Assembly (NCBI GenBank): GCA_963840855.1
Contig: CAWJBB010000062.1
Span: 32,001 to 96,000, forward strand
Origin: an uncultured delta proteobacterium
Lineage (GTDB): Bacteria > Desulfobacterota > Binatia > UBA9968
Direction of reading: 5' to 3'
Length of the DNA stretch: 64,000 nt
Shown here: piece after piece, positions 12,142-32,234 of the stretch
Position numbering within the stretch: the stretch's first letter is position 1
How the letters are laid out: each line of letters starts with the position of its first letter
Made by a program: the position numbers and the translations under genes
Notes under the pieces: generated by a model
Databases searched by the model: none
Told to the model about the DNA's origin: nothing
Seen by the model: only the letters and a program-made list of their open reading frames with translations

Positions 12142-12439
12142 CTTTAACCTCCCTAAATAGCGTCTCAGTCTGAGGCTCATCCGTCCTTTGACGATTCGCG
12201 CGAGTGAATTTTTTCGATTTCCCCAAAATAAGCAATTCACATCGGTGGGTCAATAGAATGCCGAGGAGCAGGCCAGATTTTTTCCGGCAGTAAGCAAACT
12301 GATATCCTGGATGAATTATTGCGGTCGTAGCTCAAATCGGCCGGAATGTTCAATCACTGAGACGGCCCCATGTTTTGACTTCGGCAGTGCTGGATGCTAT
12401 AGACCAAAGTTGCCAAAAGTAGAGGGGAATTTCTTTCCG

Positions 12440-13015
12440 ATGGCATGGTTTGATCGGGGTTCAGGCGAAAAGAGGGGCGGGGAAAATGAACCGGAGAATT
12501 CTGCGCCGGGGCTCAAGGTGAACCCCGAGCCCACGAAGGCCGCGGTCCCGGTGACGCCGATAGCGAAACCCACGGCGGCGCCGGTGGCAGCCCCAGCGGA
12601 AACGGGGTTGGTCGGTCATCTTTACAAAGGCAGCCGCGTTTCCGGTCAATTGATGTTCCAGGGGTCGGCCAGGATCGATGGCAACGTAGAAGGAGAGATC
12701 CAGTGTTACGGAACCCTCACAATCGGCGAGGGCGCGGAGATTCGCGCCAAGATTTCCAGCCAGGTCGTGGTCATTCGCGGCAAGGTGGAAGGTAATGTGA
12801 CGGCCAAGGAAAAAGTGGAGCTGTTATCACCGGCTCGAGTCGTTGGCAATATCACCACACCGAGGCTCGCCATCACTGAGGGTGTGGTATATGACGGTGA
12901 CTGCTCCATGGGAATGGCAAAGCAAAAAAGTGGAGTCGCGAGTTCACTAGCTGTAAGCGCCGACAAAGCGACGCCGGCGTCAACGCCGGCGCTGCAATCC
13001 GATTCCCTAAAGTAA
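12440..13015 (+). CDS. Bactofilin (polymer-forming cytoskeletal protein, CcmA/DUF583)
   Basis: Beta-helix repeats RIDGNVEGEI...LTIGEGAEIRAKI...VVIRGKVEGNV...LAITEGVVYDG; Pro/Ala-rich N-terminus. Confidence 0.9.
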   Translation: MAWFDRGSGEKRGGENEPENSAPGLKVNPEPTKAAVPVTPIAKPTAAPVAAPAETGLVGHLYKGSRVSGQLMFQGSARIDGNVEGEIQCYGTLTIGEGAEIRAKISSQVVVIRGKVEGNVTAKEKVELLSPARVVGNITTPRLAITEGVVYDGDCSMGMAKQKSGVASSLAVSADKATPASTPALQSDSLK

Positions 13016-13044
13016 ATTTCGTTTCGCCGTTCATCCCAACTTAA

Positions 13045-13085
13045 AATCCCGCGTTCACGATTTTGTCGTGAAGGCGGGTTTTTTC
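13045..13085 (+). terminator. Probable intrinsic terminator between bactofilin and atpF'
   Basis: CCCGC-GTTCACGA/TCGTGAAG-GCGGG hairpin followed by a T-run. Confidence 0.6.
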
Positions 13086-13165
13086 TTACTTTGGGCGTCT
13101 GGTTAGACAGCGCCTGCGAGCTTTGCAAGGGGCCCATGAAGATTCTTCGTATCGGCAACTAGATA

Positions 13166-13594
13166 ATGATTTCGCTCGATATTTCAATTCTTTATCAGAT
13201 CGCTATCTTTTTGGTGCTATGGCTGGGGCTGAGCAAAGTGCTATTCCGGCCGTACTTGGACTTGCTCGAAGAGCGAGAGCGTAAAACCAGCGGCACCCGG
13301 CATGATACCAGCCAGCTGGAGCACGAAGGCGCGCGGCTCAAGGCGGAGTACGAGGAGAAAATCACCCAGGCCCGGAGAGCCGGCATCGCGGCCAAGGACG
13401 CAATCATCCGAGAAGGGCGGGAGGAGCGCGAGCGGCTGCTCCAGCAGGCCCGTGAAGAAGCGGCGCGTACGCTTGAAAGCATGCGCCGCGACGTGCAGAG
13501 CCAACTGGAACGGGAACGCGAGCTGGCGGTGGCGGAAGTGGCGGGCGTCGCCCAAGACATGGTGAGTAAGGTTCTGGGGAGGAGAGTCGGGTGA
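13166..13594 (+). CDS. ATP synthase F0 subunit b'
   Basis: N-terminal TM, LFRPYLDLLEERE, coiled coil; first gene of the atp cluster. Confidence 0.85.
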   Translation: MISLDISILYQIAIFLVLWLGLSKVLFRPYLDLLEERERKTSGTRHDTSQLEHEGARLKAEYEEKITQARRAGIAAKDAIIREGREERERLLQQAREEAARTLESMRRDVQSQLERERELAVAEVAGVAQDMVSKVLGRRVG

Positions 13595-14139
13595 GCCTCT
13601 TTGAATTTCTATTTAGCGCCCAGGCTTGGGCCTCTTCAGCCGCCGCCGAACACCACGGGCCCTCGATTCACGAAATCTGGTTTCCCCTCGGTAACTTTCT
13701 GATTTTTGCGTTCATCATTGTCCGCTTCGCTCTTCCCCCGGTGCGCGCCTTTTTGCAATCCCGGCGCGAAGAAGTTTTGGCAACGGTAGAAGAGTTATCC
13801 GCTAAGAAACAGCGGGCCGAAGCGTTGGCGCAAGATTACCGGGGGCGTTTGGCGGTTTTGGACAAGGAAGTCGCGGCGCTGCAGGAGTCCTTGCGCGACG
13901 ACGGCGAAAGAGAAAAAAACAAGCTCTTGAACGAAGCGCAAACGCTGGCCGTGAAAATCAAAGAAGATGCCCGTTTTCTCGCGGACCAGGAAGTCAAATT
14001 AGCGCGTCAAAAAGTGCGCGAAGAGATGGCCGCCCGGGCCGAAGCCGCGGCGCGCGAATTAGTGCGGCGCAATCTTTCGGCGGCGGATCAGGGGCGATTA
14101 GTGGAAGACTTTATTCAGAGCATCGGGCCGACGCGATGA
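13591..14139 (+). CDS. atpF: ATP synthase F0 subunit b
   Basis: NFLIF TM, coiled coil, DQGRLVEDFI C-terminus; operon position. Confidence 0.88.
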   Translation: MSLFEFLFSAQAWASSAAAEHHGPSIHEIWFPLGNFLIFAFIIVRFALPPVRAFLQSRREEVLATVEELSAKKQRAEALAQDYRGRLAVLDKEVAALQESLRDDGEREKNKLLNEAQTLAVKIKEDARFLADQEVKLARQKVREEMAARAEAAARELVRRNLSAADQGRLVEDFIQSIGPTR

Positions 14140-14678
14140 TCGAAGGCAGCTTGGCCCGCCGGTATACGAGAGCGCTTTTCCAACTCGCTCGCGAAGCCGG
14201 CCAGGAAGAACAAGTGGGGCAGGAGGTCGAGCAGTTTTACGCTGCTTATAGCGCATCGGAGCTGCAGGGCGTTCTGACCAATCCCGCCTTCGGCGTCGAC
14301 GCCCGGAAGCGGATTCTCATTCAGGTCGCCAACGCTCAGGGACTTTCGGTGCTATCGATTCATTTTTTCTCTTTGCTTCTGGAGCGCGACAGATTAGCCC
14401 ACTTGCCAGGAATTGCGAGCTGCTACCGACGTCTGTTGAACCAGGCCAAAGGGCGAGTTGAAGCCAAGGTCATCGGCGCAAGCCCGCTCGAGCCAGCGCA
14501 TGTGGAGCGGCTGCGCGGAACGCTCAGGGGAATTTCCGGCAAAGAAGTGGTGCTGCACGAAGATACCGATCCGGCGCTTATCGGCGGGTTGCTGGTGGAG
14601 CTGGAAGGCAAGGTCTACGATGGCAGCGTGCGGACTCAGCTAGAAAAGATGAAACAGCGCATCGCGCGCGGCTACTAA
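14136..14678 (+). CDS. atpH: ATP synthase F1 subunit delta
   Basis: LARRYTRALF, DPALIGG, YDGSVRTQL. Confidence 0.95.
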   Translation: MIEGSLARRYTRALFQLAREAGQEEQVGQEVEQFYAAYSASELQGVLTNPAFGVDARKRILIQVANAQGLSVLSIHFFSLLLERDRLAHLPGIASCYRRLLNQAKGRVEAKVIGASPLEPAHVERLRGTLRGISGKEVVLHEDTDPALIGGLLVELEGKVYDGSVRTQLEKMKQRIARGY

Positions 14679-14685
14679 GGAGTGA

Positions 14686-16197
<1,512 letters not shown>

Positions 16198-16262
16198 GTC
16201 TAGGTTCTCGCGTCTGGAGTCTCGCGTTAACCTGAAACCCGAAACATGAAACTTTAAGAAGC

Positions 16263-17129
16263 ATGGCGACTCTAAAGGCCATACGTAAGCGGATCGGCTC
16301 GGTCCGCAACACACAGCAGATCACCAAGGCCATGAAAATGGTCTCGGCGGCGAAGCTGCGGCGCGCTCAAGAAGCGGCGGTGCAGGCGCGCCCCTACGCG
16401 GAAAAGATGACCGAGCTTTTGAAGAATGTTTCCAGCCGAGTTTCCAGTGAGGCGCATGCATTATTACGAGTGCGCGAGCAGAAGAAGATCCAGCTGGTGC
16501 TTTTCACGTCCGATCGCGGCCTTTGCGGCGGCTACAACACCAACTTGATCCGCGCGGCCGAAGCGTTCATGCGCCAGCACGCCGGCGACAAGGAAATAGA
16601 GCTGACTTTGGTCGGGCGCAAGGGTGCTGACCATTTTCGCCGGCGCCGGGCGAACATCGCCGAGCGCTACACCGATATTCTCTACAAAGTGCCGGAAGAA
16701 TTGGCCGGCGAAATCGCGCAAAAATTGATCGGCCGGTTTGTCAACAGCGAAACCGACACGGTCTATATTCTCTACAGCCGGTTCCGTTCGGCATTATCGC
16801 AGGTGCCGACCCTGGAAAGACTTTTACCCGTCGCACTGGCGGAAGCCGTGGAATCCGATGCGCAGCAACAGACGGAATATTTATACGAGCCGGGAGTGCA
16901 GCAACTCCTGGCGAGCCTTTTGCCGCGAATTACCGACGTTGCAGTGCAGAGGGCGCTGTTGGAGGCGACCGCCAGCGAGCATGGCGCACGCATGACCGCC
17001 ATGGATTCGGCCACCGGCAACGCCGCTAAGATGATCGGTTCATTGACATTGCAAATGAACCGGGCGCGCCAGGCTTCGATCACGCGCGAGCTGATGGAAA
17101 TCGTCGGTACGGCGGAAGCTTTGAAGTAA
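16263..17129 (+). CDS. atpG: ATP synthase F1 subunit gamma
   Basis: ITKAMKMVSAAK, SDRGLCG, RQASITRELMEI. Confidence 0.98.
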   Translation: MATLKAIRKRIGSVRNTQQITKAMKMVSAAKLRRAQEAAVQARPYAEKMTELLKNVSSRVSSEAHALLRVREQKKIQLVLFTSDRGLCGGYNTNLIRAAEAFMRQHAGDKEIELTLVGRKGADHFRRRRANIAERYTDILYKVPEELAGEIAQKLIGRFVNSETDTVYILYSRFRSALSQVPTLERLLPVALAEAVESDAQQQTEYLYEPGVQQLLASLLPRITDVAVQRALLEATASEHGARMTAMDSATGNAAKMIGSLTLQMNRARQASITRELMEIVGTAEALK

Positions 17130-17158
17130 GAAAATACCGCGCTCGTGCTTGCAAATGA

Positions 17159-18625
<1,467 letters not shown>

Positions 18626-18705
18626 GTTAGGCGAGAGGCACGAGGCAACAGGTGTGAGGCGGGGACTAACGCCTTTCGCCGCACGGCTCACGCCTGGAAT
18701 TTGAG

Positions 18706-19122
18706 ATGGCAGACAAAATCCGACTTAGAGTCGTAACGCCGAGCCGGATGCTCCTCGATGAGGATGTCGACGAAGTGACCGCCCCGGGTGAGTTGGGCGA
18801 GTTCGGCGTGCTGCCGAATCATATTGCTTTTCTAACCACGCTCGTGCCCGGCGAGCTGAGTTATAAGCAAGGATCGAGCAAAAAGACCTTGGCGGTGAGC
18901 GGCGGCTACGCCGAAGTCCTGGACAATGTCATGACTGTTTTGGCGCCGGCCGCGGAGTTCGCCGATGAGATCGATAGCGCCAGGGCGCAGCGGGCTAAAG
19001 AGCGGGCAGAAAAATTGATGGCTGAGCTGAATCGAGGGGAGAAAGATTGGGAGATGGCCGAGGCAGCGTTGAAAAGAGCCCTTGTCAGGCTCCAGGTTGC
19101 CAGCAGAGAAGCAAGAAGGTAA
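18706..19122 (+). CDS. atpC: ATP synthase F1 subunit epsilon
   Basis: VVTP, GEFGVLPNH, VSGGYAEV, ID..RA. Confidence 0.96.
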   Translation: MADKIRLRVVTPSRMLLDEDVDEVTAPGELGEFGVLPNHIAFLTTLVPGELSYKQGSSKKTLAVSGGYAEVLDNVMTVLAPAAEFADEIDSARAQRAKERAEKLMAELNRGEKDWEMAEAALKRALVRLQVASREARR

Positions 19123-19155
19123 AAGGAAAGAAGCCTGAAGTAAGGAGGACGATTT

Positions 19156-20292
19156 ATGGCCGAAGCAGCCAAACAAGAACCCGTAATCACCATGTGGAGC
19201 AAAGAGTTCACCTACGACCGGTGGATGAAATCCAAGGGCATTCCGATCCACAGGGGCTACTATATCGAAGATCTCCGCACCGTCGACTTGGAATGGTGGG
19301 AAGAGAGAGGCTGTAAAGCGGCGTTCATTCAGCTGCTGGGCCAGGAAGGCGTCAGCGCGTCGCGCGTCACCGAAGTCCCTCCCGGTAAGTCGTTGCCGCC
19401 CGTGAAGTTTGCCTTGGATGAAATCGTTTATGTCTGTGCCGGCCGCGGCCTGACCACGGTCTGGACCGGTGCAGGCAAAGCGAAGAAAAACTTCGAGTGG
19501 CAAGAGCACTCCATGTTCCTGGTGCCGCGCAATCATTGGCATGTATTCAGCAACATGCAGGGCGACAAGCCGGTCCGGCTGTTCCATTACAGCTATATGC
19601 CGATGGCGATGTCGGCGCTGCCTGAACCGGACATGTACTTTAACAATCCGTACGAGCCAAAAGTCAGCGCGGCCGAGAGCGGCGATTTCTATTCGGAAGC
19701 CAAGATGGTTCAAGCGAAAGACGCCGACGAAGGCTTGGGCATGCGCGCCTTTTGGTACGGCAATTTCTTCCCCGACATGCGCGCATGGAATAAGCTTGAC
19801 GCCAACGAACGGCGCGGCGCCGGCGGCAAGAGCGTTTTTATGCAGTTCCCCAATTCTGAATTGACCGCTCATATGTCAGTCTTTGCGCCAAAGACCTACA
19901 AGAAGGCGCACCGCCATGGACCCGGCCGGGCGATTATTATTCCGGCGGGCGAAGGCTACTCGATCATGTGGGAAGAGGGCAAAGAGAAGATCGTCTGTCC
20001 ATGGCATGAGTGCTCGATGGTAACGCCGCCCAACAAGTGGTTCCACCAACACTTTAACGCCGGCGGCGACATGGCGCGTTATCTGGCGCTCCATCCGCCG
20101 ATGCAGTTTCATGGTCACGCTGAGAAAGTTGAGGACCGCGCTAAAGACCAGATCGAGTATCCCAATGAAGATCCGTTTATCCGCCAGAAATTCGAGGCGG
20201 AACTGGGCAAGCGCGGCATAAAGAGCATTATGCCTGAAGAGTGTTACAGCGATCCGGATTACGAATGGTCCAAGTCGATGGGGAAACAGTAA
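19156..20292 (+). CDS. Bicupin protein (gentisate 1,2-dioxygenase-like fold), function unknown
   Basis: C-terminal cupin HRHGPG...WFHQHFN; N-terminal cupin degenerate (DEIVYV...WHVFSN); AGGAGG RBS; starts 33 bp after atpC. Confidence 0.8.
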   Translation: MAEAAKQEPVITMWSKEFTYDRWMKSKGIPIHRGYYIEDLRTVDLEWWEERGCKAAFIQLLGQEGVSASRVTEVPPGKSLPPVKFALDEIVYVCAGRGLTTVWTGAGKAKKNFEWQEHSMFLVPRNHWHVFSNMQGDKPVRLFHYSYMPMAMSALPEPDMYFNNPYEPKVSAAESGDFYSEAKMVQAKDADEGLGMRAFWYGNFFPDMRAWNKLDANERRGAGGKSVFMQFPNSELTAHMSVFAPKTYKKAHRHGPGRAIIIPAGEGYSIMWEEGKEKIVCPWHECSMVTPPNKWFHQHFNAGGDMARYLALHPPMQFHGHAEKVEDRAKDQIEYPNEDPFIRQKFEAELGKRGIKSIMPEECYSDPDYEWSKSMGKQ

Positions 20293-20323
20293 GCCGGTTC
20301 CAGGATTTAAAACGGGTTCCGCG

Positions 20324-20361
20324 AAGAATCCCTGCACGCGAGTGCGGGGATTCTTGTTTAT
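20324..20361 (+). terminator. Strong hairpin (terminator or mRNA stabiliser) between the bicupin and EutA-like genes
   Basis: AAGAATCCCTGCAC-GCGA-GTGCGGGGATTCTT then GTTTAT. Confidence 0.55.
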
Positions 20362-20391
20362 GAAGGCAAGCAAAAGATAAGGATGTGAGGT

Positions 20392-21915
20392 ATGGCAATG
20401 CACGACGATATCTATGATCACGACCATCCGGATAATTTCATCATCGGGGAAGATGACATCGTCACCGAGATCGAGGGCCTGGAGATGTTTTCGCTCAAGA
20501 GCGTGGGCATCGACATCGGGTCTTCGACCTCGCATTTGATTTTTTCACTGATCACGCTCAGGCGCGAAGGCGCGTCGCTTTCGGGAAAATTCAAAGTCAC
20601 CAACCGCGAGGTACTGTATCGTTCGCCGATCATGCTGACTCCCTATTTGTCGGCGACCAAGATCGACACGGACCAGGTCAATGCGTTCATTCAGCGGGCC
20701 TACAAAGAAGCGGGTTTGACGGCGGAAGACGTCGACACCGGCGCGGTGATTATCACCGGCGAGGCGCTCAAAAAAGAAAACGCCCAGCCCATCGTCGAAA
20801 ACTTCGCCAAGTACTCAGGCAAATTTATCTGCGCGGCGGCCGGCCACAACCATGAGGCGTTGCTCGCGGCCTATGGCTGCGGCGCCGTGGACCTGTCTAA
20901 AGCGGAACACAAGACGGTGCTCAACGTCGATATGGGCGGCGGCACGACGAAGTTCTCGCTGGTCGAAGACGGCATCGTGACGCAAACGGCGGCGATCAAC
21001 ATCGGCGCGCGTCTGATCGCTTTCGACGAGAAGGACAAGATCACCCGCATCGAAGATGCCGGCCGGACGATGATGAAAGAGCTCGGCCACAAAGTGGAGC
21101 TCGGTCAGACGATTAGTGATAAAATGAAGGAAGACTTCGGCGCCTACATGGCGAAAATCCTCTTCGAGACTATCGAAGACGGGCCGAATTCGCCCATGGC
21201 TAGTTCGCTAATGGTTACACCGTCGTTCACCAACTACCGCGGTTTCACGCAAATACAGCATATTGTTTTCTCCGGCGGCGTTTCCGAGCATGTCTATGAC
21301 CGCGATCCCAAGGCCTACGGTGACATCGGACCCGTGCTGGGTAAGAACGTGCGCGAGTATTTGAAGAAGCTGCCGAAGGATATCCTGCGCGAGCCCATCG
21401 AAGGAATTCGCGCCACAGTCATCGGTGCCGGCGAATACACAATCCAGGCCAGTGGTAACACCAGTTACGTTTCCAATGAGAAGGCACTGCCAGTGCATGG
21501 CCTCAAAGTGATTCAAGCGTCGATCCGTGACGGAGAGCCGGTGAGCGAGGCGCTCAGGCAGTCGCTCAGAAAATTTGACATGACTCGTTTCACTTCTGGA
21601 CTGGCTCTTTCGCTGACCGTGAGCGGCGTACCGGATTACCAGTCGGTCAGGCGCATCGCCGAGGGCGTCGTGGAGATACTCAAAGATGCCGACGATCCGA
21701 AGTGTCCTTTGTACCTGACCCTCGACCTGGACATCGCCAAATCACTTGGCGGCATGCTTAGAGATGAATTCAGGGTCGCCCGGGACATCATCGCCATCGA
21801 CGGCATCGAGGTAGGCGATCTGGACTACATCGACATCGGAGAGTGCTTGGGTATCACGGAAGTCATTCCGGTCACCGTCAAGTCGCTGATGTTTCCGACG
21901 AAGCTAAGCGATTAA
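20392..21915 (+). CDS. EutA-like ASKHA-fold ATPase (ethanolamine ammonia-lyase reactivase family) with His/Asp-rich N-terminus
   Basis: SVGIDIGSSTS, YRSPI.LTP, DTGAVIITGE, AAGH..EA, NVDMGGGTT, FSGGV, IRATVIGAG, DYIDIG, PVTVKSL. Confidence 0.88.
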   Translation: MAMHDDIYDHDHPDNFIIGEDDIVTEIEGLEMFSLKSVGIDIGSSTSHLIFSLITLRREGASLSGKFKVTNREVLYRSPIMLTPYLSATKIDTDQVNAFIQRAYKEAGLTAEDVDTGAVIITGEALKKENAQPIVENFAKYSGKFICAAAGHNHEALLAAYGCGAVDLSKAEHKTVLNVDMGGGTTKFSLVEDGIVTQTAAINIGARLIAFDEKDKITRIEDAGRTMMKELGHKVELGQTISDKMKEDFGAYMAKILFETIEDGPNSPMASSLMVTPSFTNYRGFTQIQHIVFSGGVSEHVYDRDPKAYGDIGPVLGKNVREYLKKLPKDILREPIEGIRATVIGAGEYTIQASGNTSYVSNEKALPVHGLKVIQASIRDGEPVSEALRQSLRKFDMTRFTSGLALSLTVSGVPDYQSVRRIAEGVVEILKDADDPKCPLYLTLDLDIAKSLGGMLRDEFRVARDIIAIDGIEVGDLDYIDIGECLGITEVIPVTVKSLMFPTKLSD

Positions 21916-21945
21916 CCCGCATTTCGCATGTGGTTCTAAGCAAAT

Positions 21946-21980
21946 CGAGGCCTCGCTTCCATGCGGGGCCTCGGTGTTTT
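21946..21980 (+). terminator. Probable intrinsic terminator after the EutA-like gene
   Basis: CGAGGCCTCGC-TTCCAT-GCGGGGCCTCG then GTGTTTT. Confidence 0.55.
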
Positions 21981-22005
21981 AGGGGCTGCGTTTTTAACTC
22001 ATTCC

Positions 22006-22866
22006 ATGGCCGAATACTATGCCTTGCAGGCCGCCCTCTGTTTCTCCATTGCCCATATCTTTGTCCGGCGCGGCTTGGTTCATTCCAACGCTTTCACCGG
22101 CTCGGTGATTTCACTCGGTACCAGCGCGACCATACTTTGGCTCCTGGCGCTGATCATGGTTCCATTGTCCGTTTTGCGATCTCCCGCTGTCGGTTACTTT
22201 ATCGCTGCCGGTTTTTTTGCGCCGGCGATCGGACAAACCCTCGGGTACATCGGTATGGAGCGCATTGGAGTTGCGCGGTCAGCACCGATCGTCAACACAT
22301 CCCCGATGTTTTCTTCCATCTTCGCGGTTCTATTCTTGGGCGAGATATGGTTAGCGCGGAATATCATCGGGACCTGTCTGGTCATACTCGGGGTCGTCAT
22401 TCTGTCGTTGAGTAAAACGACAGGGGGCCATTGGAATAAGAAAGATATCGTTTATCCGGTGCTTGCCGCGCTGGCGTTTGGTATCTCAACAACGCTCAGG
22501 AAAACCGGCTTGATGACGGTGCACGTTCCGTTGTTGGCCGCCGCGATTACGGTCGGAACAGCGTTTTTTGTTTTATTGGGAATCATTTACCTCCAGGGAG
22601 GGCGCCGGGCGCTCCAGTTCAACCGGCAAAGCAGCGGCTGGCTATTCGGCGCCGCGCTGGTCAATACCGGCGCGATCCTATCTTTCTTTTCCGCGCTCAA
22701 TGTCGGCCAGATCGTGCGCGTCGAGCCCTTGGTGGCTTGCAATCCCCTGCTGACGATCATTTTGGCCGCTTTTTTCCTCAAGCAAATTGAGCAATTAACC
22801 TCTCGTGTCCTGGTCGGCGCAGTAGTTACGGTAATTGGCACAGTGCTGGTGGTGACGGCAAAATAA
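22006..22866 (+). CDS. EamA/DMT-family transporter
   Basis: About 10 TM helices, two EamA repeats, FAPAIG...IGVARSAPI. Confidence 0.88.
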   Translation: MAEYYALQAALCFSIAHIFVRRGLVHSNAFTGSVISLGTSATILWLLALIMVPLSVLRSPAVGYFIAAGFFAPAIGQTLGYIGMERIGVARSAPIVNTSPMFSSIFAVLFLGEIWLARNIIGTCLVILGVVILSLSKTTGGHWNKKDIVYPVLAALAFGISTTLRKTGLMTVHVPLLAAAITVGTAFFVLLGIIYLQGGRRALQFNRQSSGWLFGAALVNTGAILSFFSALNVGQIVRVEPLVACNPLLTIILAAFFLKQIEQLTSRVLVGAVVTVIGTVLVVTAK

Positions 22867-22875
22867 GGACGCTTC

Positions 22876-23736
22876 GTGGAGATATACTTCTCGTTTCAAG
22901 CAGCGCTGTGCTTTTCCATCGCTCATATTTTGATCCGGCGAGGGCTGGTCGAATCTAACGCATTAACGGGCTCGTTCATTTCTCTATCCATCAGCGCCGT
23001 AGTGTCATGGGCGCTGGTGGCGTTTTTTGTGTCGCCGTCTGAGGTACGGATCCCAGCGGTATTAATTTTTATGACGGCGGGTATTTTCGCGCCGGGCATT
23101 GGCCGAACTCTAAGCTACGTGGGCATCGAAAAGATCGGCGTTGCCCGGTCGGTTCCGATTGCCAACTCCTCGCCGATCGTCGCCTCTATTTTTGCGGTCA
23201 TCTTTCTGGGAGAGTCATGGGTGCCGCGTAATATTGCCGGTACGTTGTCGGTCATCGCGGGCGTCGTAGTTCTGTCCATGGCCAAGCCCGCCCGGGGGCC
23301 CTGGCGCAAGTTTGATGTGATCTATCCGCTTATTGGCGCGGCTGCCTTCGGGGCGTCGACGACGCTGCGAAAAGCAGGTTTGGGTTATAGCAATATGCCC
23401 ATATTGGCGGCAGCCGTGACCGCGGCAGCGGCGGCGATATTCTCGTTTATTTTAATGCAGGTCCGAGGCGGTAAAGTAGCGCTCAAGCTGACGCGCAAAA
23501 GCGCCGCCTGGTTATTCGCCGCCGGTTTTTGCAACACCGCGGCGATGCTGTCGGTGTTCTACGCCTTGAGCCATGGCAAAGTGGTGATCGTCGAACCACT
23601 TGTGAGTTCCAATCCCGTCCTTACTTTGTTGCTGACGTCGATATTTTTGCGCGACGTGGAAGCTTTGAGCACGCGCGTGATTATCGGCGCGCTGCTGACG
23701 GTGGCGGGGACTATTCTAGTTATCACCGCGAAATAA
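22876..23736 (+). CDS. EamA/DMT-family transporter (tandem paralogue)
   Basis: Shares QAALCFSIAHI, IGVARS, VEPLV and the VTAK/ITAK end with the preceding gene. Confidence 0.88.
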   Translation: MEIYFSFQAALCFSIAHILIRRGLVESNALTGSFISLSISAVVSWALVAFFVSPSEVRIPAVLIFMTAGIFAPGIGRTLSYVGIEKIGVARSVPIANSSPIVASIFAVIFLGESWVPRNIAGTLSVIAGVVVLSMAKPARGPWRKFDVIYPLIGAAAFGASTTLRKAGLGYSNMPILAAAVTAAAAAIFSFILMQVRGGKVALKLTRKSAAWLFAAGFCNTAAMLSVFYALSHGKVVIVEPLVSSNPVLTLLLTSIFLRDVEALSTRVIIGALLTVAGTILVITAK

Positions 23737-26776: not shown

Positions 26777-26981
26777 ACGAAGAGGGATGTTGACCAAACT
26801 GACCACTAACTTGAATATGAGTACGATGACACGGAGAATCTTGTCTGATTCCGGCGGGCGCTAAAAGTTTTCCTTGCGCAAGTCGTTTCGTTTAACTAGG
26901 ATCGCCACGTCGCAGTCACATCTCTGGTGTTCCAGCTTTTTGTTCTGTCTAAAGCTAATTTTTCACGAGAGGAGACACGCC

Positions 26982-28094
26982 ATGATCACTTTCGGTCGGA
27001 AGAGACCCATCGTTAGAGCTCTTGTCGCTCTCACCTTGATGCTTGCCTCAACCCCCTTCGTCGAAGCGTTACAAGCGGCCGAAGCAAAGCAGCAAGCAGG
27101 GCCGAAGCGCCACAAGCTTGCCGCCACGCTGGAAACAACCCAGTGGGGTTGGCTTGATCCTAATGAAGCTCCCAAGCTTACGGTCAATTCGGGGGATATC
27201 GTCTCCATTGAGACCATGATGCACTCCCACAATAAGATCCAGCCGGGCACCACGATGGAGGAGATCGTCGCGCTAAGAAAGGCTAATCCGGGCGGAGGGC
27301 CGCACTCTGTGACCGGTCCCATCTACGTCAATGGCGCCGAGCCCGGAGATGTCATGGAGATTCGCATCTTGACAATCACACCGAAGCCCTTTGGGGTTAA
27401 CTTCAACCTTCCGGGCAAGGACTTCCCCACGATCGGCGCGCTGGCTCCCGAATTTCCCGAAGGATTCGTCAAGTACTTCAATTTGGATTGGAAAAACCGC
27501 CAGGCCGAGTTTAAACCGGGTATCACGATCGATATAAAACCGTTTCCGGGAACCCTGGCAGTCGGGATCGACCCCAACGACCCTTCGCCACGCAAGGGCG
27601 GGGCTAAAGATCCGATGGCGCCGGTTTCAACGCTGCGGCCCTGGAAGAACGGCTCCAACATGGATCTTAACGAACTTCAGGAGGGAAGCACCATCTTCAT
27701 TCCGGTCTTTCTGAAGGGCGGGCTGATATGGACCGGAGACTCGCACTGCCGGCAGGGAAACGGCGAGGTCAATCTCACCGCGCTGGAGTGTGCCTTTCGG
27801 GACATCACGCTGCAATTGATCGTCCGCAAGGACATGAAGCTAGAGTGGCCGCGAGCGGAGAACAAAAGCCACTGGATCTTCATGGGCTTCGATGAAGACC
27901 TTAATAAGGCGATGGTTAGCGCTGTCCGCGAAACGGTTGATTTTCTAGCGAGTCAAAAAATGGTGGGTGTGGATCGTTACGAGGCTTACTCGATAACCTC
28001 GATGGTGGCTGACTGTCGCGTGACCCAGGTAGTTGATATCCGCAAAGGGGTCCACTGCATGGTCCCTAAAGCTATTTTTTCCAAAAAGAAGTAG
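26982..28094 (+). CDS. Acetamidase/formamidase-family amidase with signal peptide
   Basis: HSVTGPIYVNGAEPGD, PFPG, GSNMD, GDSHCRQGNGEV, VTQVVD; basic/hydrophobic N-terminus ending ALQA. Confidence 0.88.
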   Translation: MITFGRKRPIVRALVALTLMLASTPFVEALQAAEAKQQAGPKRHKLAATLETTQWGWLDPNEAPKLTVNSGDIVSIETMMHSHNKIQPGTTMEEIVALRKANPGGGPHSVTGPIYVNGAEPGDVMEIRILTITPKPFGVNFNLPGKDFPTIGALAPEFPEGFVKYFNLDWKNRQAEFKPGITIDIKPFPGTLAVGIDPNDPSPRKGGAKDPMAPVSTLRPWKNGSNMDLNELQEGSTIFIPVFLKGGLIWTGDSHCRQGNGEVNLTALECAFRDITLQLIVRKDMKLEWPRAENKSHWIFMGFDEDLNKAMVSAVRETVDFLASQKMVGVDRYEAYSITSMVADCRVTQVVDIRKGVHCMVPKAIFSKKK

Positions 28095-28097
28095 CGG

Positions 28098-29006
28098 GTG
28101 CTCTACGCGCTTCCATTCCTCCTGCTGTGGATCGCTGTTGCCTGGGGCGCCGCCCCGGTTTCTGTAGTTACGACCTCAACGGACTTGAAGGCCCTAGCGG
28201 AGGCTGTGGGAGGGGAGAGAGTCCAGGTGGAGAGCCTCGCTCCTCCGCTGCACGATCCGCACGCTTTGGAGGTCAAGCCAGGCCAACTGTCTAAGATCAA
28301 AGCTGCGTCTTTGCTCGTCAGGATCGGCCTCGATCACGAGCCCTGGCTTGGCCGCGCTCTGCGGACCCTGAGTGATCGCCGCTTTGTCCGCGACAGCCCG
28401 CACTATCTCGATACCTCTAAGGGAATCCAACTCCTTCAGGCGGAGACTCCGAGAGTCCGGGCGGATAAGGGAGCGCACGTCCACGGCTTCGGTAATACCC
28501 ACTACTGGCTTGATCCGGAAAACAGCAAGCCTATCACTGCAGCAATCCTGGAAGCCTTGGATCGCCTGGTCCCTGGGGAGCGCCGCTATTTTGAGGCGAA
28601 CCGAAAGCGATTCCTCGACCAACTCGATAAACGGCTAAATATTTGGTTGCGCGCTATGGCTTCCTACAAGGGCACGCGAGCAATTGCGGTTCACGAGACA
28701 TGGCCCTATTTTGCCCAACGCTTCGGCCTTGTGGTCGTCGCGGTTGTGGAGCCAATCCCAGGAGTCCCGCCTTCTCCATCATACCTTGCTAGCCTTATTC
28801 AGAAGATGCGAGACTCCGGGGTTAGGCTACTGATAGCCGAGCCTTACTCGAATGCCTCAGTGGTAAGACAGATCGCGGCGCAAAGCGGTGCCACCGCCAT
28901 TACGCTGATTCCCTCGGTGGGCGGAGATCCGGAGGCTGCTGATTATCTCAGCCTCTTCGACCTCAACATCAAGCGGCTCTCAGAGGCTGCAGCCGCGGCG
29001 CGCTAG
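28098..29006 (+). CDS. Zn/Mn (TroA/ZnuA-like) ABC substrate-binding protein
   Basis: HDPH, GLDHEPW, HVH.FGNTHYWLDP, HETWPYF, EP.PGVPPS. Confidence 0.9.
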   Translation: MLYALPFLLLWIAVAWGAAPVSVVTTSTDLKALAEAVGGERVQVESLAPPLHDPHALEVKPGQLSKIKAASLLVRIGLDHEPWLGRALRTLSDRRFVRDSPHYLDTSKGIQLLQAETPRVRADKGAHVHGFGNTHYWLDPENSKPITAAILEALDRLVPGERRYFEANRKRFLDQLDKRLNIWLRAMASYKGTRAIAVHETWPYFAQRFGLVVVAVVEPIPGVPPSPSYLASLIQKMRDSGVRLLIAEPYSNASVVRQIAAQSGATAITLIPSVGGDPEAADYLSLFDLNIKRLSEAAAAAR

Positions 29007-29033
29007 GAAGTTTGACTATTCCATCATGAGAAG

Positions 29034-30320
29034 ATGATTTCGACTATCGAGTATCTCTGGGTGCCATTCTTGGCCTGCTTGGTTCTCACCGGTATCCACG
29101 TCTACCTGGGCCTCCACGTCCTGGCCCGGGGCATCATCTTCGTTGATTTGGCCCTTGCTCAGGTAGCGGCTCTGGGAATCACAGTCGCCCTTCTTGCCGG
29201 CCACCCGATCCAGAGCGAAGCAGCGTATTGGTATGCCCTGGCGTTCACAATGGCCGGGAGTCTCCTCTTTGCCATGAGCCGAACCCATCGAGCCCCGATT
29301 CCTCAGGAAGCCATCATTGGGATCGTGTATGCCGTGTCGGCAGCCATCGCCATCCTAGTGATTGATCGCGCGCCACAAGGTAGCGAGCATATTAAACAGC
29401 TCCTCGTGGGAAGCATACTTACAGTCACCTTGAAAGAAGTTGGTACTCTGGCGCTTTTGTATGCGATCGTCGGCTCAATCCACTGGACGATCCGCCGGCC
29501 GCTGCTGGAGATCTCGCTTGATCCTGAAGCGGCCGCAAGCAAAGGGCGGCGGGTGCATTGGTGGGATTTTGTCTTCTATTCCTCTTTCGGGCTTGTCGTT
29601 ACGAGTTCTGTGCAAATCGCCGGGGTCCTGCTGGTCTTCTCCTACCTGATTGTCCCCGCGGCTATCGCAGCCCTTCTCGCTCGCTCAGTAAGCGCAAGGT
29701 TAGCTCTCGGCTGGGGGCTTGGCTTTGTCGTTAGCATCCTCGGCCTCGTCGCCTCCGCCGCCTGGGATCTTCCCACCGGGGCCACGGTCGTGACAACGTT
29801 CGGCGTATCCGTGGCGGCCGTCGTCGTCTGGCTCGCTCTACTGGCCCTTATTCAAGCGACCAGAGCTAAAGGCCTAGGCGCGTTTGCCGGCGCGGGCATT
29901 GCTGCTTTTGCCATGGTGGGACTGGCTGGCTTCTTGCTCTGTACCTTTCCGCAGATAGACCACCATTGGCTCAACTGGCTGGAAAAGGCAGTGCCCACTG
30001 TCCAACTCGCTTTTCTCACTTCCGACGAGCGCGAAACCTATCGGGATAGCCAAGAAGCAGTTCAGCAAGGGCAGGGCGAAATCCGACGGCTGCGCGCCAT
30101 GCAGGAACAAGTGCAGTGGGGTGCTCGCGAGATGACCGAAGAGATGCAGGAGCGCCTTAGACAGTATCTTGCGAGCCGGAGCGAAATCATCGCCGGTGAC
30201 CAGATAGTGCTCAAGCATCTTCAAACGACGGCAAGACAACGCCAACGTTTTTGGTTGGGCATCCCATTCCTTTTGATCGGAGCTGGAGGCGCTCTCACTC
30301 TGGCTCGCGCGAGACGGTAA
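29034..30320 (+). CDS. ABC-3 (ZnuB-like) metal permease with an extra C-terminal TM-helical-TM module
   Basis: HVYLGLHV, RGIIFVDLALAQ, QEAIIG, WDFVFY, GVLLVFSYLIVPA; long extension beyond the permease core. Confidence 0.85.
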   Translation: MISTIEYLWVPFLACLVLTGIHVYLGLHVLARGIIFVDLALAQVAALGITVALLAGHPIQSEAAYWYALAFTMAGSLLFAMSRTHRAPIPQEAIIGIVYAVSAAIAILVIDRAPQGSEHIKQLLVGSILTVTLKEVGTLALLYAIVGSIHWTIRRPLLEISLDPEAAASKGRRVHWWDFVFYSSFGLVVTSSVQIAGVLLVFSYLIVPAAIAALLARSVSARLALGWGLGFVVSILGLVASAAWDLPTGATVVTTFGVSVAAVVVWLALLALIQATRAKGLGAFAGAGIAAFAMVGLAGFLLCTFPQIDHHWLNWLEKAVPTVQLAFLTSDERETYRDSQEAVQQGQGEIRRLRAMQEQVQWGAREMTEEMQERLRQYLASRSEIIAGDQIVLKHLQTTARQRQRFWLGIPFLLIGAGGALTLARARR

Positions 30321-31110: not shown

Positions 31111-32234
31111 TGGACTCTGAAAACAGATGGAACTGGCAACAGGACGACTGGCCTCGGTTCCGTCTCGACAAGTCAGCTCTCGAAGAAATGGAGGCGAAGT
31201 TTCTGCTTCACGGCGGCCTTCTGCTGGGCGCGCTCCTACATATCCGCGACGACGACAAAAGCGCCCTGACCGTCGACCTGATCAGCAACGAGGCTCTCAA
31301 AACTTCCGAGATTGAAGGCGAGTATCTCAACCGCGAGAGTGTGCAATCGTCCATCCGGCGCAATTTCGGGCTCGATACCGACGCGCGCAGAATTCCGCCC
31401 GCCGAGCAGGGCATTGCCGATATGATGATGGATCTCTATCGCAGCTTCGCCGAGCCTCTCACCGACAAGACCATGTTCCGATGGCACGGCATGCTTACAG
31501 CCGGGAGGCGGGATTTGAAAAACATTGGAGCCTACAGAACGGATAGTGAGCCGATGCAAATTATCTCCGGCCCGATTGGCGATCCGAAGATTCATTTCGA
31601 AGCGCCGCCATCGGCCGCCATGGAAAAAGAAATGGAGGGCTTCGTCAACTGGTTCAATGATACGGCGCCGCACGGCAACATGGTCCTTCCGGCTCTTACA
31701 CGGGCAGGCATCGCCCATCTGTATTTTCTCACCATCCATCCTTTTGAAGACGGCAACGGACGCATTGCGCGCGCGCTGGCCGAAAAGGCTCTGTCCCAGG
31801 TTCTCGGCCAGCCGACGCTGATTGCGCTCTCGCAGACCATTCAGAAGAACAAGAAATCTTATTACGAGGCGCTCCACCACAGCAGCAGGGAGAACGAAAT
31901 CACGGCGTGGCTTGGGTATTTCGCCGACATTGTTTTGCAGGCGCAGGAGACGACGCAGCGCATGATCGACTTCCTGATCCAGAAAACGAAGCTCTACGAC
32001 AGGGTCAAGAATCAACTCAATGAGCGGCAGGAAAAAGCTCTCGCTCGGATCTTCCGTGAAGGGGTGGAGGGTTTCAAGGGCGGCGTGAGCGCCGAAAATT
32101 ACATTTCGATCACCGGCGCTGCGCGCGCCACCGCCACGCGCGACCTTCAGGGTCTCGTCGACAAGGGCGTCCTGGTCCGCACCGGCGCGCTCAAAAGCAC
32201 GCGCTACCACTTGAACCTCGAGGCAAGAAAATAA
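31110..32234 (+). CDS. Fic-domain protein (DUF4172-type N-terminus, C-terminal wHTH)
   Basis: WNWQ..DWP, TSEIEGE, intact Fic motif HPFEDGNGRIAR, ATATRDL...V.KG. Confidence 0.92.
   Translation: MDSENRWNWQQDDWPRFRLDKSALEEMEAKFLLHGGLLLGALLHIRDDDKSALTVDLISNEALKTSEIEGEYLNRESVQSSIRRNFGLDTDARRIPPAEQGIADMMMDLYRSFAEPLTDKTMFRWHGMLTAGRRDLKNIGAYRTDSEPMQIISGPIGDPKIHFEAPPSAAMEKEMEGFVNWFNDTAPHGNMVLPALTRAGIAHLYFLTIHPFEDGNGRIARALAEKALSQVLGQPTLIALSQTIQKNKKSYYEALHHSSRENEITAWLGYFADIVLQAQETTQRMIDFLIQKTKLYDRVKNQLNERQEKALARIFREGVEGFKGGVSAENYISITGAARATATRDLQGLVDKGVLVRTGALKSTRYHLNLEARK

Follow-up and report, generated by a model that had tools for sequence, protein, structure and literature searches.

In an uncultured delta proteobacterium (GTDB lineage Bacteria; Desulfobacterota; Binatia; UBA9968), a gene for a two-barrel cupin (bicupin) and a gene for a EutA-family ATPase of the ASKHA superfamily follow one another behind the ATP synthase genes and very probably form one functional module, as judged from sequence comparisons of the pair across genomes. 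The two genes are located in a stretch of 64,000 nucleotides, hereafter the window, which covers positions 32,001 to 96,000 of contig CAWJBB010000062.1 in assembly GCA_963840855.1 (coordinates in Table 1). The genome is 7.1 Mb in size and 94% complete, with 8.3% contamination. An initial annotation of the window had proposed a two-protein system in which the ATPase reactivates, metallates or energises the cupin enzyme, and this reading is supported by a cupin-EutA adjacency that is conserved and co-diverged. All features listed in that annotation were located, and neither of the two outcomes named there as refuting it occurred: eutBC was not found in the genome and the ATPase does not group with eutBC-adjacent EutA, and the adjacency recurs in other genomes. 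The arrangement of the two genes is more than chance.

Among 26 loci from close relatives, the bicupin gene (87-97% identical) was located directly 5' of the ATPase gene in all 25 that contained upstream DNA, and atpC preceded the bicupin gene in all 24 that reached that far. Among public records, the nearest loci bear the titles of Candidatus Binatia or 'delta proteobacterium' metagenome-assembled genomes. Homologues of the EamA genes were present 3' of the ATPase gene in most of the close loci, and a second bicupin gene (about 66-71% identical) was found downstream in 17 of the 26, usually past two EamA genes. The median identities to the window, calculated for 16 loci with four complete genes, were 92% for the bicupin, 90% for the ATPase, 94% for AtpD and 80% for AtpC, and bicupin orthologues were 67-90% identical. 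A metagenome locus of a more distant relative (71% identical) also shows the order atpC, bicupin, ATPase and second bicupin, tightly spaced (4, 14 and 16 nt) and lacking the intergenic hairpin described below.

The arrangement is not merely conserved but also duplicated, as seen in a set of 35 full-length paralogue loci taken from six further genomes of the order and from the three other EutA-family loci of this genome, which has four full-length genes of the family in all. A bicupin gene of the same family was located directly upstream on the same strand in 21 of the 35 loci, spread over seven genomes, and within about 3 kb in 2 more; in many pairs, 4-15 nt separate the cupin stop from the ATPase start. 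The pairing is kept without atp genes in the f2 genomes, in all other paralogue groups and in metagenome loci. For 25 pairs, the identity matrices of the two proteins correlated with r = 0.97, or r = 0.87 when restricted to comparisons between groups, and in 24 of 24 comparisons a cupin and its nearest relative among the cupins were paired with ATPases of one group. These figures are inflated by the relatedness of the sequences and are descriptive, but the group-by-group mirror is nonetheless clear. The complete single-contig genomes G029, G047, G065 and G137 argue against an artefact of assembly or binning.

We also examined how far the family and the pairing extend. Among 151 sampled genomes of the class, full-length EutA-family proteins were found only in the 19 genomes of the window's order, with several in each, while the remaining genomes yielded local matches of about 30 bits or none; the unpublished genome G087 entered this tally but no other result. 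Full-length members were present in 8 of 401 genomes sampled from the phylum. Six loci outside the window's family were fetched from five genomes: two eutA-eutB-eutC clusters, two loci beside genes for tungsten-type aldehyde ferredoxin oxidoreductase (AFOR; hereafter AOR) and ferredoxin, one with neither type of neighbour, and one bicupin-ATPase pair. The latter (L071), in another family of the phylum, is followed by GntR and UbiD genes. A metagenome scan with the family alignment confirmed 555 loci, and for the 80 closest to the query a bicupin gene was located directly upstream in 22 of the 55 that had at least 1100 nt of upstream sequence, and, of the 39 that had both flanks, 23 contained one no more than 500 nt away, upstream or downstream.

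The ATPase is a full-length member of the EutA family, as originally annotated: the match to PF06277 (E = 1e-121, 407.6 bits against a cut-off of 27) covers model positions 3-474 of 475. All four EutA equivalog models of NCBIfam (NF007991-NF007994) were missed, the best score being 354.2 bits against a cut-off of 598. From residue 35 onwards, the protein is 33% identical over 472 residues to EutA of E. coli (b2451), whose role as a reactivase is taken from its RefSeq product name. Homologues carry the name 'ethanolamine ammonia-lyase reactivating factor EutA' in databases, and the family comprises 764 clusters at 50% identity (E up to 1e-30). In an alignment of 25 sequences, G43 and T46 of the DIGSSTS motif were invariant, D41 and I42 were at least 90% conserved, and the DxGGGT and FSGGVSE motifs were invariant or nearly so. 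An AlphaFold2 (AF2) model with a predicted local distance difference test score (pLDDT) of 84.4 comprises an ASKHA core that is preceded by about 30 disordered residues and complemented by an additional domain at the C-terminus; its fold matches included Ppx/GppA (Z 17), the 2-hydroxyacyl-CoA dehydratase activator 4eht (Z 14.1), FtsA/PilM (Z 13) and DdrA (2d0o, Z 11.2). The phosphate-1, phosphate-2 and adenosine motifs and the two-lobed fold of the ASKHA superfamily are thus all present, and the conserved motifs and fold matches predict a protein competent for ATP hydrolysis.

EutA is an ATP-driven factor that opens the adenosylcobalamin-dependent ethanolamine ammonia-lyase and replaces its spent cobalamin. 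The ATPase shares with E. coli EutA the full length of PF06277 and the same ASKHA nucleotide motifs, and probably also a general mode of action as an ATP-driven helper at the cofactor site of a partner. The client of EutA is the B12 lyase EutBC, whereas the likely partner of the ATPase is a cupin. DdrA, from the diol/glycerol dehydratase reactivase DdrAB, likewise has an ASKHA fold, but no sequence-family relation to the ATPase was found for DdrAB or for HypB, UreE and SlyD, so that the likeness to these systems is one of functional analogy only; in Pfam and NCBIfam, the ATPase matched EutA and ASKHA families alone and none of the HypB, UreE or SlyD families. In five representatives of the EutA family (P0361, P0372, P0377, P0380 and P0384), the protein begins with about 190-215 residues that contain CxxC motifs and match nothing in Pfam.

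A B12-dependent client could not be identified for the ATPase. The lack of eutB, eutC and microcompartment genes, previously reported for the window, extends to the whole genome, in which EutB, EutC and bacterial microcompartment (BMC) shell domains were not found. EutB was present in 0 of 61 genomes of the order and eutB in 0 of the 80 metagenome loci. In a maximum-likelihood tree of 34 rows, inferred after 12 near-duplicates and one broken gene (L042) had been dropped, a branch with support of 100/97 sets the 29 rows that resemble the window's ATPase apart from the rows adjacent to eutBC (three) or to AOR (two), and the ATPase accordingly does not group with eutBC-adjacent EutA; the eutBC-adjacent rows are long branches and the root position of the tree is not settled. 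The proteins of the true eutA-eutB-eutC clusters elsewhere in the phylum (L072 and L073) are 27-28% identical to the ATPase. The strong Pfam match and the database product names would fit a true EutA serving a B12-dependent ethanolamine ammonia-lyase encoded elsewhere, but we give this explanation a negligible probability: it is opposed by the missing EutB, EutC and BMC genes in the genome, the missing EutB in the order, the scores below the equivalog cut-offs and the position on a separate branch, and as far as the genome data reach it is refuted, unless the missing 6% encodes eutBC.

The EutA-family genes beside AFOR and ferredoxin genes (L068 in G388 and L069 in G329) have no N-terminal extension, and a ThiF-family gene is also located nearby in L068. 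Their products are possibly helpers of the tungsten enzyme.

The window's branch further differs from EutA by an extra acidic, His-containing extension of 23-55 residues. The acidic, His-rich sequence MAMHDDIYDHDHPD, initially described as a tail of the ATPase, is real but is placed at the N-terminus and not in a C-terminal tail. Residues 1-30 have pLDDT values below 50. The second ATG, at 20398 (MHDD...), may be the conserved start. Measured in 40 rows of the window's branch with trusted starts, the extensions contained 1-13 His and 2-16 Asp plus Glu, with HQHHGHGNHGHDHE and HKHTHDSEHDHGGDHEHHGDHDH as examples, whereas in E. coli EutA, the eutBC-adjacent L072 and both AOR-adjacent homologues the first ASKHA motif is preceded by 6-9 residues, none of them His; the counts omit the eutBC-adjacent L073 and the pair-carrying L071, in which the motif pattern was not matched. 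One paralogue group is His-rich at the C-terminus as well, and the motif EHPMW/EHPLW recurs in two extension groups. In a broader survey of the 150 best representatives at 50% identity, 136 carried the motif; among these the median extension was 31 residues, 67 had at least 3 His, and 10 had a short N-terminus like that of true EutA. His-rich disordered tails are a hallmark of nickel chaperones, and metallochaperones of the HypB, UreE and SlyD type resemble the ATPase in the His-rich disordered segment only. The extensions look like metal-binding or docking segments.

The bicupin has a Pfam Cupin_1 match on its N-terminal barrel only (27.1 bits against a cut-off of 22), and its AF2 model (pLDDT 83.6) contains two barrels, on which solved bicupin structures superpose over residues 16-335. 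A site composed of HRH (252-254) and HQH (297-299) is found in the C-terminal barrel. Across 22 aligned orthologues and paralogues, H252, H297 and H299 were invariant and H254 was at least 90% conserved, while the N-terminal barrel lacks an HxH motif and has FALDE at the equivalent position, in agreement with the earlier statement that the site is intact in the C-terminal domain only. The best structural matches (VIA-align) were gentisate 1,2-dioxygenase (3bu7, Z 21.9, root-mean-square deviation 5.3 over 280 residues), salicylate 1,2-dioxygenase (2phd, Z 21.0) and the gentisate dioxygenase of E. coli O157 (2d40, Z 19.8). A sequence search of the PDB with the bicupin returned three weak matches, of which 3bu7 was the best (E = 0.0011 over 40 residues), and such searches identified no close solved relative of either the bicupin or the ATPase. 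Among curated models of ring-cleaving dioxygenases the sole match was to 5-aminosalicylate 1,2-dioxygenase, at 19.1 bits against a cut-off of 650, and in the protein atlas the bicupin matched unnamed cupin clusters only.

We infer that the bicupin is a metal-dependent enzyme of the gentisate/salicylate 1,2-dioxygenase structural type, which most likely cleaves or otherwise transforms a hydroxylated aromatic acid. It is similar in fold to these dioxygenases but only 10-15% identical in sequence, and whereas their active site is located in the N-terminal barrel, the conserved cluster of H252, H254 and H297 (plus H299) is in the C-terminal barrel. To our knowledge, no gentisate or salicylate 1,2-dioxygenase requires an ATPase. 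Two copies of the bicupin gene in this genome (G000:C87:58648-59715 and 69415-70482) obtained equal tblastn scores, both with 33.8% identity over 367 residues, and are located about 10.8 kb apart, which suggests a recent segment duplication.

The paralogue pairs sit among Rieske/LigXa, LigB, Amidohydro_2, dienelactone hydrolase, HpaB, molybdenum hydroxylase and UbiD genes, neighbours that usually belong to the aerobic catabolism of aromatic compounds. Within the same branch, other members adjoin further metal enzymes, namely another bicupin, small cupins with UbiD, Amidohydro_2 and two haem-oxygenase-like iron proteins. One EutA-family paralogue of this genome (G000:C40:337423-343589, corresponding to L008 5423-11589) has 9 His in its first 27 residues and is part of a same-strand cluster with genes for a TenA/haem-oxygenase-like protein, an NMT1/THI5-like protein, two haem-oxygenase-like 'iron-containing redox enzyme' proteins and a bicupin. 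A divergent pair of EutA-family genes (L043 in G047 and L050 in G113, with products 27% identical to the window's ATPase) is accompanied by UbiD, one to two small cupins and a Cdc48-like double AAA ATPase.

The bicupin gene and the ATPase gene are separated by a hairpin, which had been noted earlier as capped by a GNRA loop. Its arms (20324-20337 and 20342-20355) are 14 nt long and 93% complementary, and enclose a GCGA loop. The free energy was estimated to -26.7 kcal/mol (z = -3.4), and 2 of 200 shuffled sequences were as stable. The hairpin is kept in all 26 close intergenic regions, of which 23 were identified by motif search and 3 by fold, and begins 34-43 nt past the cupin stop. The core GAATCCCCGC...GCGGGGATTC is maintained while the inner stem and loop are variable, and one outer pair has changed from A-U to G-C. 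The tails read GUUUAU, AUUUAU or UUUUAU, with only 3-4 U, and no Rfam family matches this hairpin. In form the hairpin resembles an intrinsic terminator whose U-tract is weak, and its conservation together with the short U-tail fits a leaky terminator that would lower the expression of the ATPase.

At the other junction, the absence of a visible terminator in the 33 nt between atpC and the bicupin gene, as first described, was borne out by the coordinates and by a scan of 19100-19170, which identified no inverted repeat. The two genes are likely co-transcribed. Both genes and both junctions are represented, with few differences, among contigs assembled from four soil metatranscriptome runs that belong to one study; the atpC-bicupin junction is spanned by X5 record 1 (19024-19235) and X6 record 10 (19086-19359), and X9 record 30 (20254-20404) passes through the intergenic hairpin. 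These contigs are signs of an expression of the pair in soil.

As to what the module does, we incline, with moderate confidence, to the reading that the ATPase uses ATP to act on a ring-cleaving cupin as a chaperone or reactivase of its metal centre. We favour this reading because the one function assigned in the family is cofactor exchange on a partner enzyme, because relatives adjoin several unrelated cofactor enzymes, and because the extensions resemble metal-binding or docking segments. It is also consistent with the His/Asp-rich extensions of most paralogue groups, with up to 13 His, and with the conserved His site of the cupin. Under such a scheme, an ATPase from the same family as EutA would have been re-targeted to a cupin. 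It would bind its cognate cupin, and ATP hydrolysis in the ASKHA core would open or remodel the cupin barrel so that the active-site metal could be inserted, exchanged or re-reduced, while the disordered, acidic, His-containing N-terminal extension might bind a metal ion or serve for docking to the partner. In this lineage, transcription would cover the ATP synthase genes and the bicupin gene together, and the stem-loop 3' of the bicupin gene would probably end most transcripts, resulting in less ATPase than enzyme.

Several observations weigh against the metal-centre chaperone. The genome encodes the bicupin family at 19 places and the EutA family at 4, and therefore most bicupins manage without a dedicated ATPase; conversely, 12 of the 35 paralogue loci show no bicupin of the same family nearby. 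These 12 consist of an orthologous group of seven, the divergent pair with small cupins, UbiD and the Cdc48-like ATPase, and three others that are located beside a different bicupin or beside Amidohydro_2 and ABC transporter genes. The large, cupin-linked group of the L007 type has an acidic cluster but only 1 His in the extension, so that a His-based role as metal carrier cannot be general. With respect to nickel, no HupE/UreJ gene was found in the genome, its single NicO gene (C30:195988) is about 185 kb from the nearest bicupin, and the scanned neighbours of the pairs included no nickel genes; nor did a connection to the uptake of any other metal emerge. A search for fusions, which is weak evidence, found two longer forms, neither with a cupin. 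The assignment of the bicupin to the dioxygenases is qualified by their small margin over seed globulins (Z 21.9 versus 19.1; oxalate decarboxylase, Z 18) and by a Foldseek comparison with the PDB, which ranked oxalate decarboxylases at the top and returned generic bicupins only, at TM-scores of about 0.45. The U-tract of the hairpin is short, and the hairpin is a feature of the lineage rather than of the core system, since more distant orthologues lack it (gaps of 4-44 nt). Finally, the contigs from RNA libraries show presence but prove neither a single transcript nor the level or ends of one, and they may stem from carried-over DNA.

Among the alternatives, it is unlikely that the ATPase is a catalytic partner, which would use ATP to activate a small-molecule substrate in a phosphorylation or carboxylation-type step before the cupin converts the product. 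The ASKHA fold is common to sugar kinases, pantothenate kinases and Ppx/GppA, with the best structural matches at Z 12-17, co-divergence is expected of enzyme pairs in one pathway, and UbiD (de)carboxylases adjoin several of the loci. However, the only function assigned in the family, according to the RefSeq product name and earlier biochemistry, is that of a protein-directed reactivase; the unrelated enzymes encoded nearby (EutBC, tungsten AOR, cupins and amidohydrolases) are better suited to a protein client; and disordered His/Asp-rich extensions are atypical of kinases. We consider it rather improbable that the ATPase acts in the folding, assembly or regulation of the cupin oligomer and not at its metal centre, in which case the extension would be a docking peptide only. 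This would agree with the retention of the acidic cluster in the L007-type group, with the resemblance of EHPMW/EHPLW to a docking motif and with the chaperone activity of Hsp70-like ASKHA proteins, as well as with the match to DdrA, but not with the 3-13 His in the extensions of most groups, the His-rich C-terminus of one of them and the finding that all clients seen are metal or cofactor enzymes. It is very unlikely that the two genes have no common function and are mere neighbours behind a strong atp promoter. The short, terminator-free distance to atpC, the hairpin between the genes in this lineage and the excess of bicupin places over EutA-family genes would be explained, whereas the persistence of the pairing without atp genes and the co-divergence of the pairs would not.

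Extending the metal-centre chaperone to the whole family leads to a more tentative scheme, which we regard as possible but doubtful. EutA-family proteins would be general ATP-driven chaperones for the exchange of cofactors or metal centres, with the B12 reactivase as one offshoot. The His/Asp-extended branch would contain dedicated partners of non-haem metal oxygenases and its sister branch would serve tungsten AOR. In this soil lineage, each group of self-inactivating oxygenases would have its own co-evolved reactivase, and co-expression of the most conserved pair with ATP synthase would reflect a need for it in every respiring cell. The non-haem metal oxygenases in this scheme would, just as tentatively, be the gentisate-dioxygenase-like bicupins, other cupins and the haem-oxygenase-like iron enzymes.

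Judged by titles and the first parts of abstracts, the literature searches found no description of EutA homologues paired with cupins, and the publications that join the two terms concern eut microcompartment or ectoine genes. What the locus contributes is the linkage to ATP synthase, the conserved intergenic hairpin, several co-diverged pairs per genome, a split in the tree from eutBC-linked EutA and signs of expression in soil. Annotation pipelines currently label these proteins as EutA reactivating factor in organisms that cannot have that function. Cupin-type oxygenases lose activity through oxidation or loss of the metal. If the metal-centre chaperone is correct, ATP-dependent repair or metal loading would reach beyond B12 enzymes, hydrogenase and urease to cupin-type oxygenases, which would account for the frequently poor heterologous expression of the latter, and aromatic ring cleavage in abundant, uncultured bacteria of soil would become accessible to experiment through a system of two proteins.

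Table 1. Position of the bicupin-ATPase pair and adjacent features in the window.
Feature	Position	Strand	Remarks
atp cluster atpF'-F-H-A-G-D-C (b', b, delta, alpha, gamma, beta, epsilon)	13166-19122	+	reads straight into the bicupin gene
atpC (ATP synthase epsilon)	18706-19122	+	Pfam ATP-synt_DE_N 2.8e-26, ATP-synt_DE 1.2e-13; last gene of the cluster
atpC-bicupin spacer, 33 nt	19123-19155	+	contains the strong Shine-Dalgarno sequence AAGGAGGA
Bicupin gene, 378 aa	19156-20292	+	open reading frame (ORF) call; Pfam Cupin_1
Intergenic hairpin, 14-bp stem, GCGA loop, GUUUAU tail	20324-20361	+	terminator-like or attenuator
EutA-family ASKHA ATPase gene, 507 aa	20392-21915	+	PF06277
N-terminal extension of the ATPase, residues 1-34, MAMHDDIYDHDHPDNF...	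20392-20493	+	acidic, His-containing, predicted disordered
Terminator-like hairpin and T-run 3' of the ATPase gene	21946-21981	+	11-bp stem, 6-nt loop
Two EamA/DMT-family transporter genes	21961-22866 and 22876-23736	+	Pfam EamA 4.7e-27 and 2.4e-25

The terminator proposed behind the ATPase gene is present as a terminator-like stem of 11 nt (21946-21973, 91% complementary), followed by GTGTTTTAGG. The sole Rfam match in this region was a sub-threshold hit of isrJ to the 3' hairpin (24.2 versus 37 bits, E = 0.19), which is taken as chance. Neither hairpin was named by a consensus terminator scan, which lacked power (14 sites versus 15.6 expected), and the combined promoter and terminator scan was uninformative, with counts at or below the shuffle expectation.

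Two loci in the complete genome G047 have unusual gene structures. In L035 (G047:C1, 5241-5770), from a sister family, the pair is located 529 nt after atpD with no atpC between. Neither an ORF of suitable length nor a tblastn match was found in the gap, and the epsilon gene is either elsewhere or missing. In L042 (G047:C1, 6995-8502), a bicupin-adjacent EutA-family gene is split into parts of 384 and 113 aa, due to a frameshift, a broken gene or a sequencing error.

About 5 kb 3' of the pair, at 26874-30320, the window contains a formamidase/acetamidase-family gene, a gene for a ZnuA-type metal-binding protein and an ABC-3 permease gene, for which no link to the bicupin-ATPase pair was established. 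At the other end (12311-13594), where no a or c subunit genes adjoin the start of the atp cluster, two b-type subunit genes open the cluster directly 3' of a bactofilin gene.

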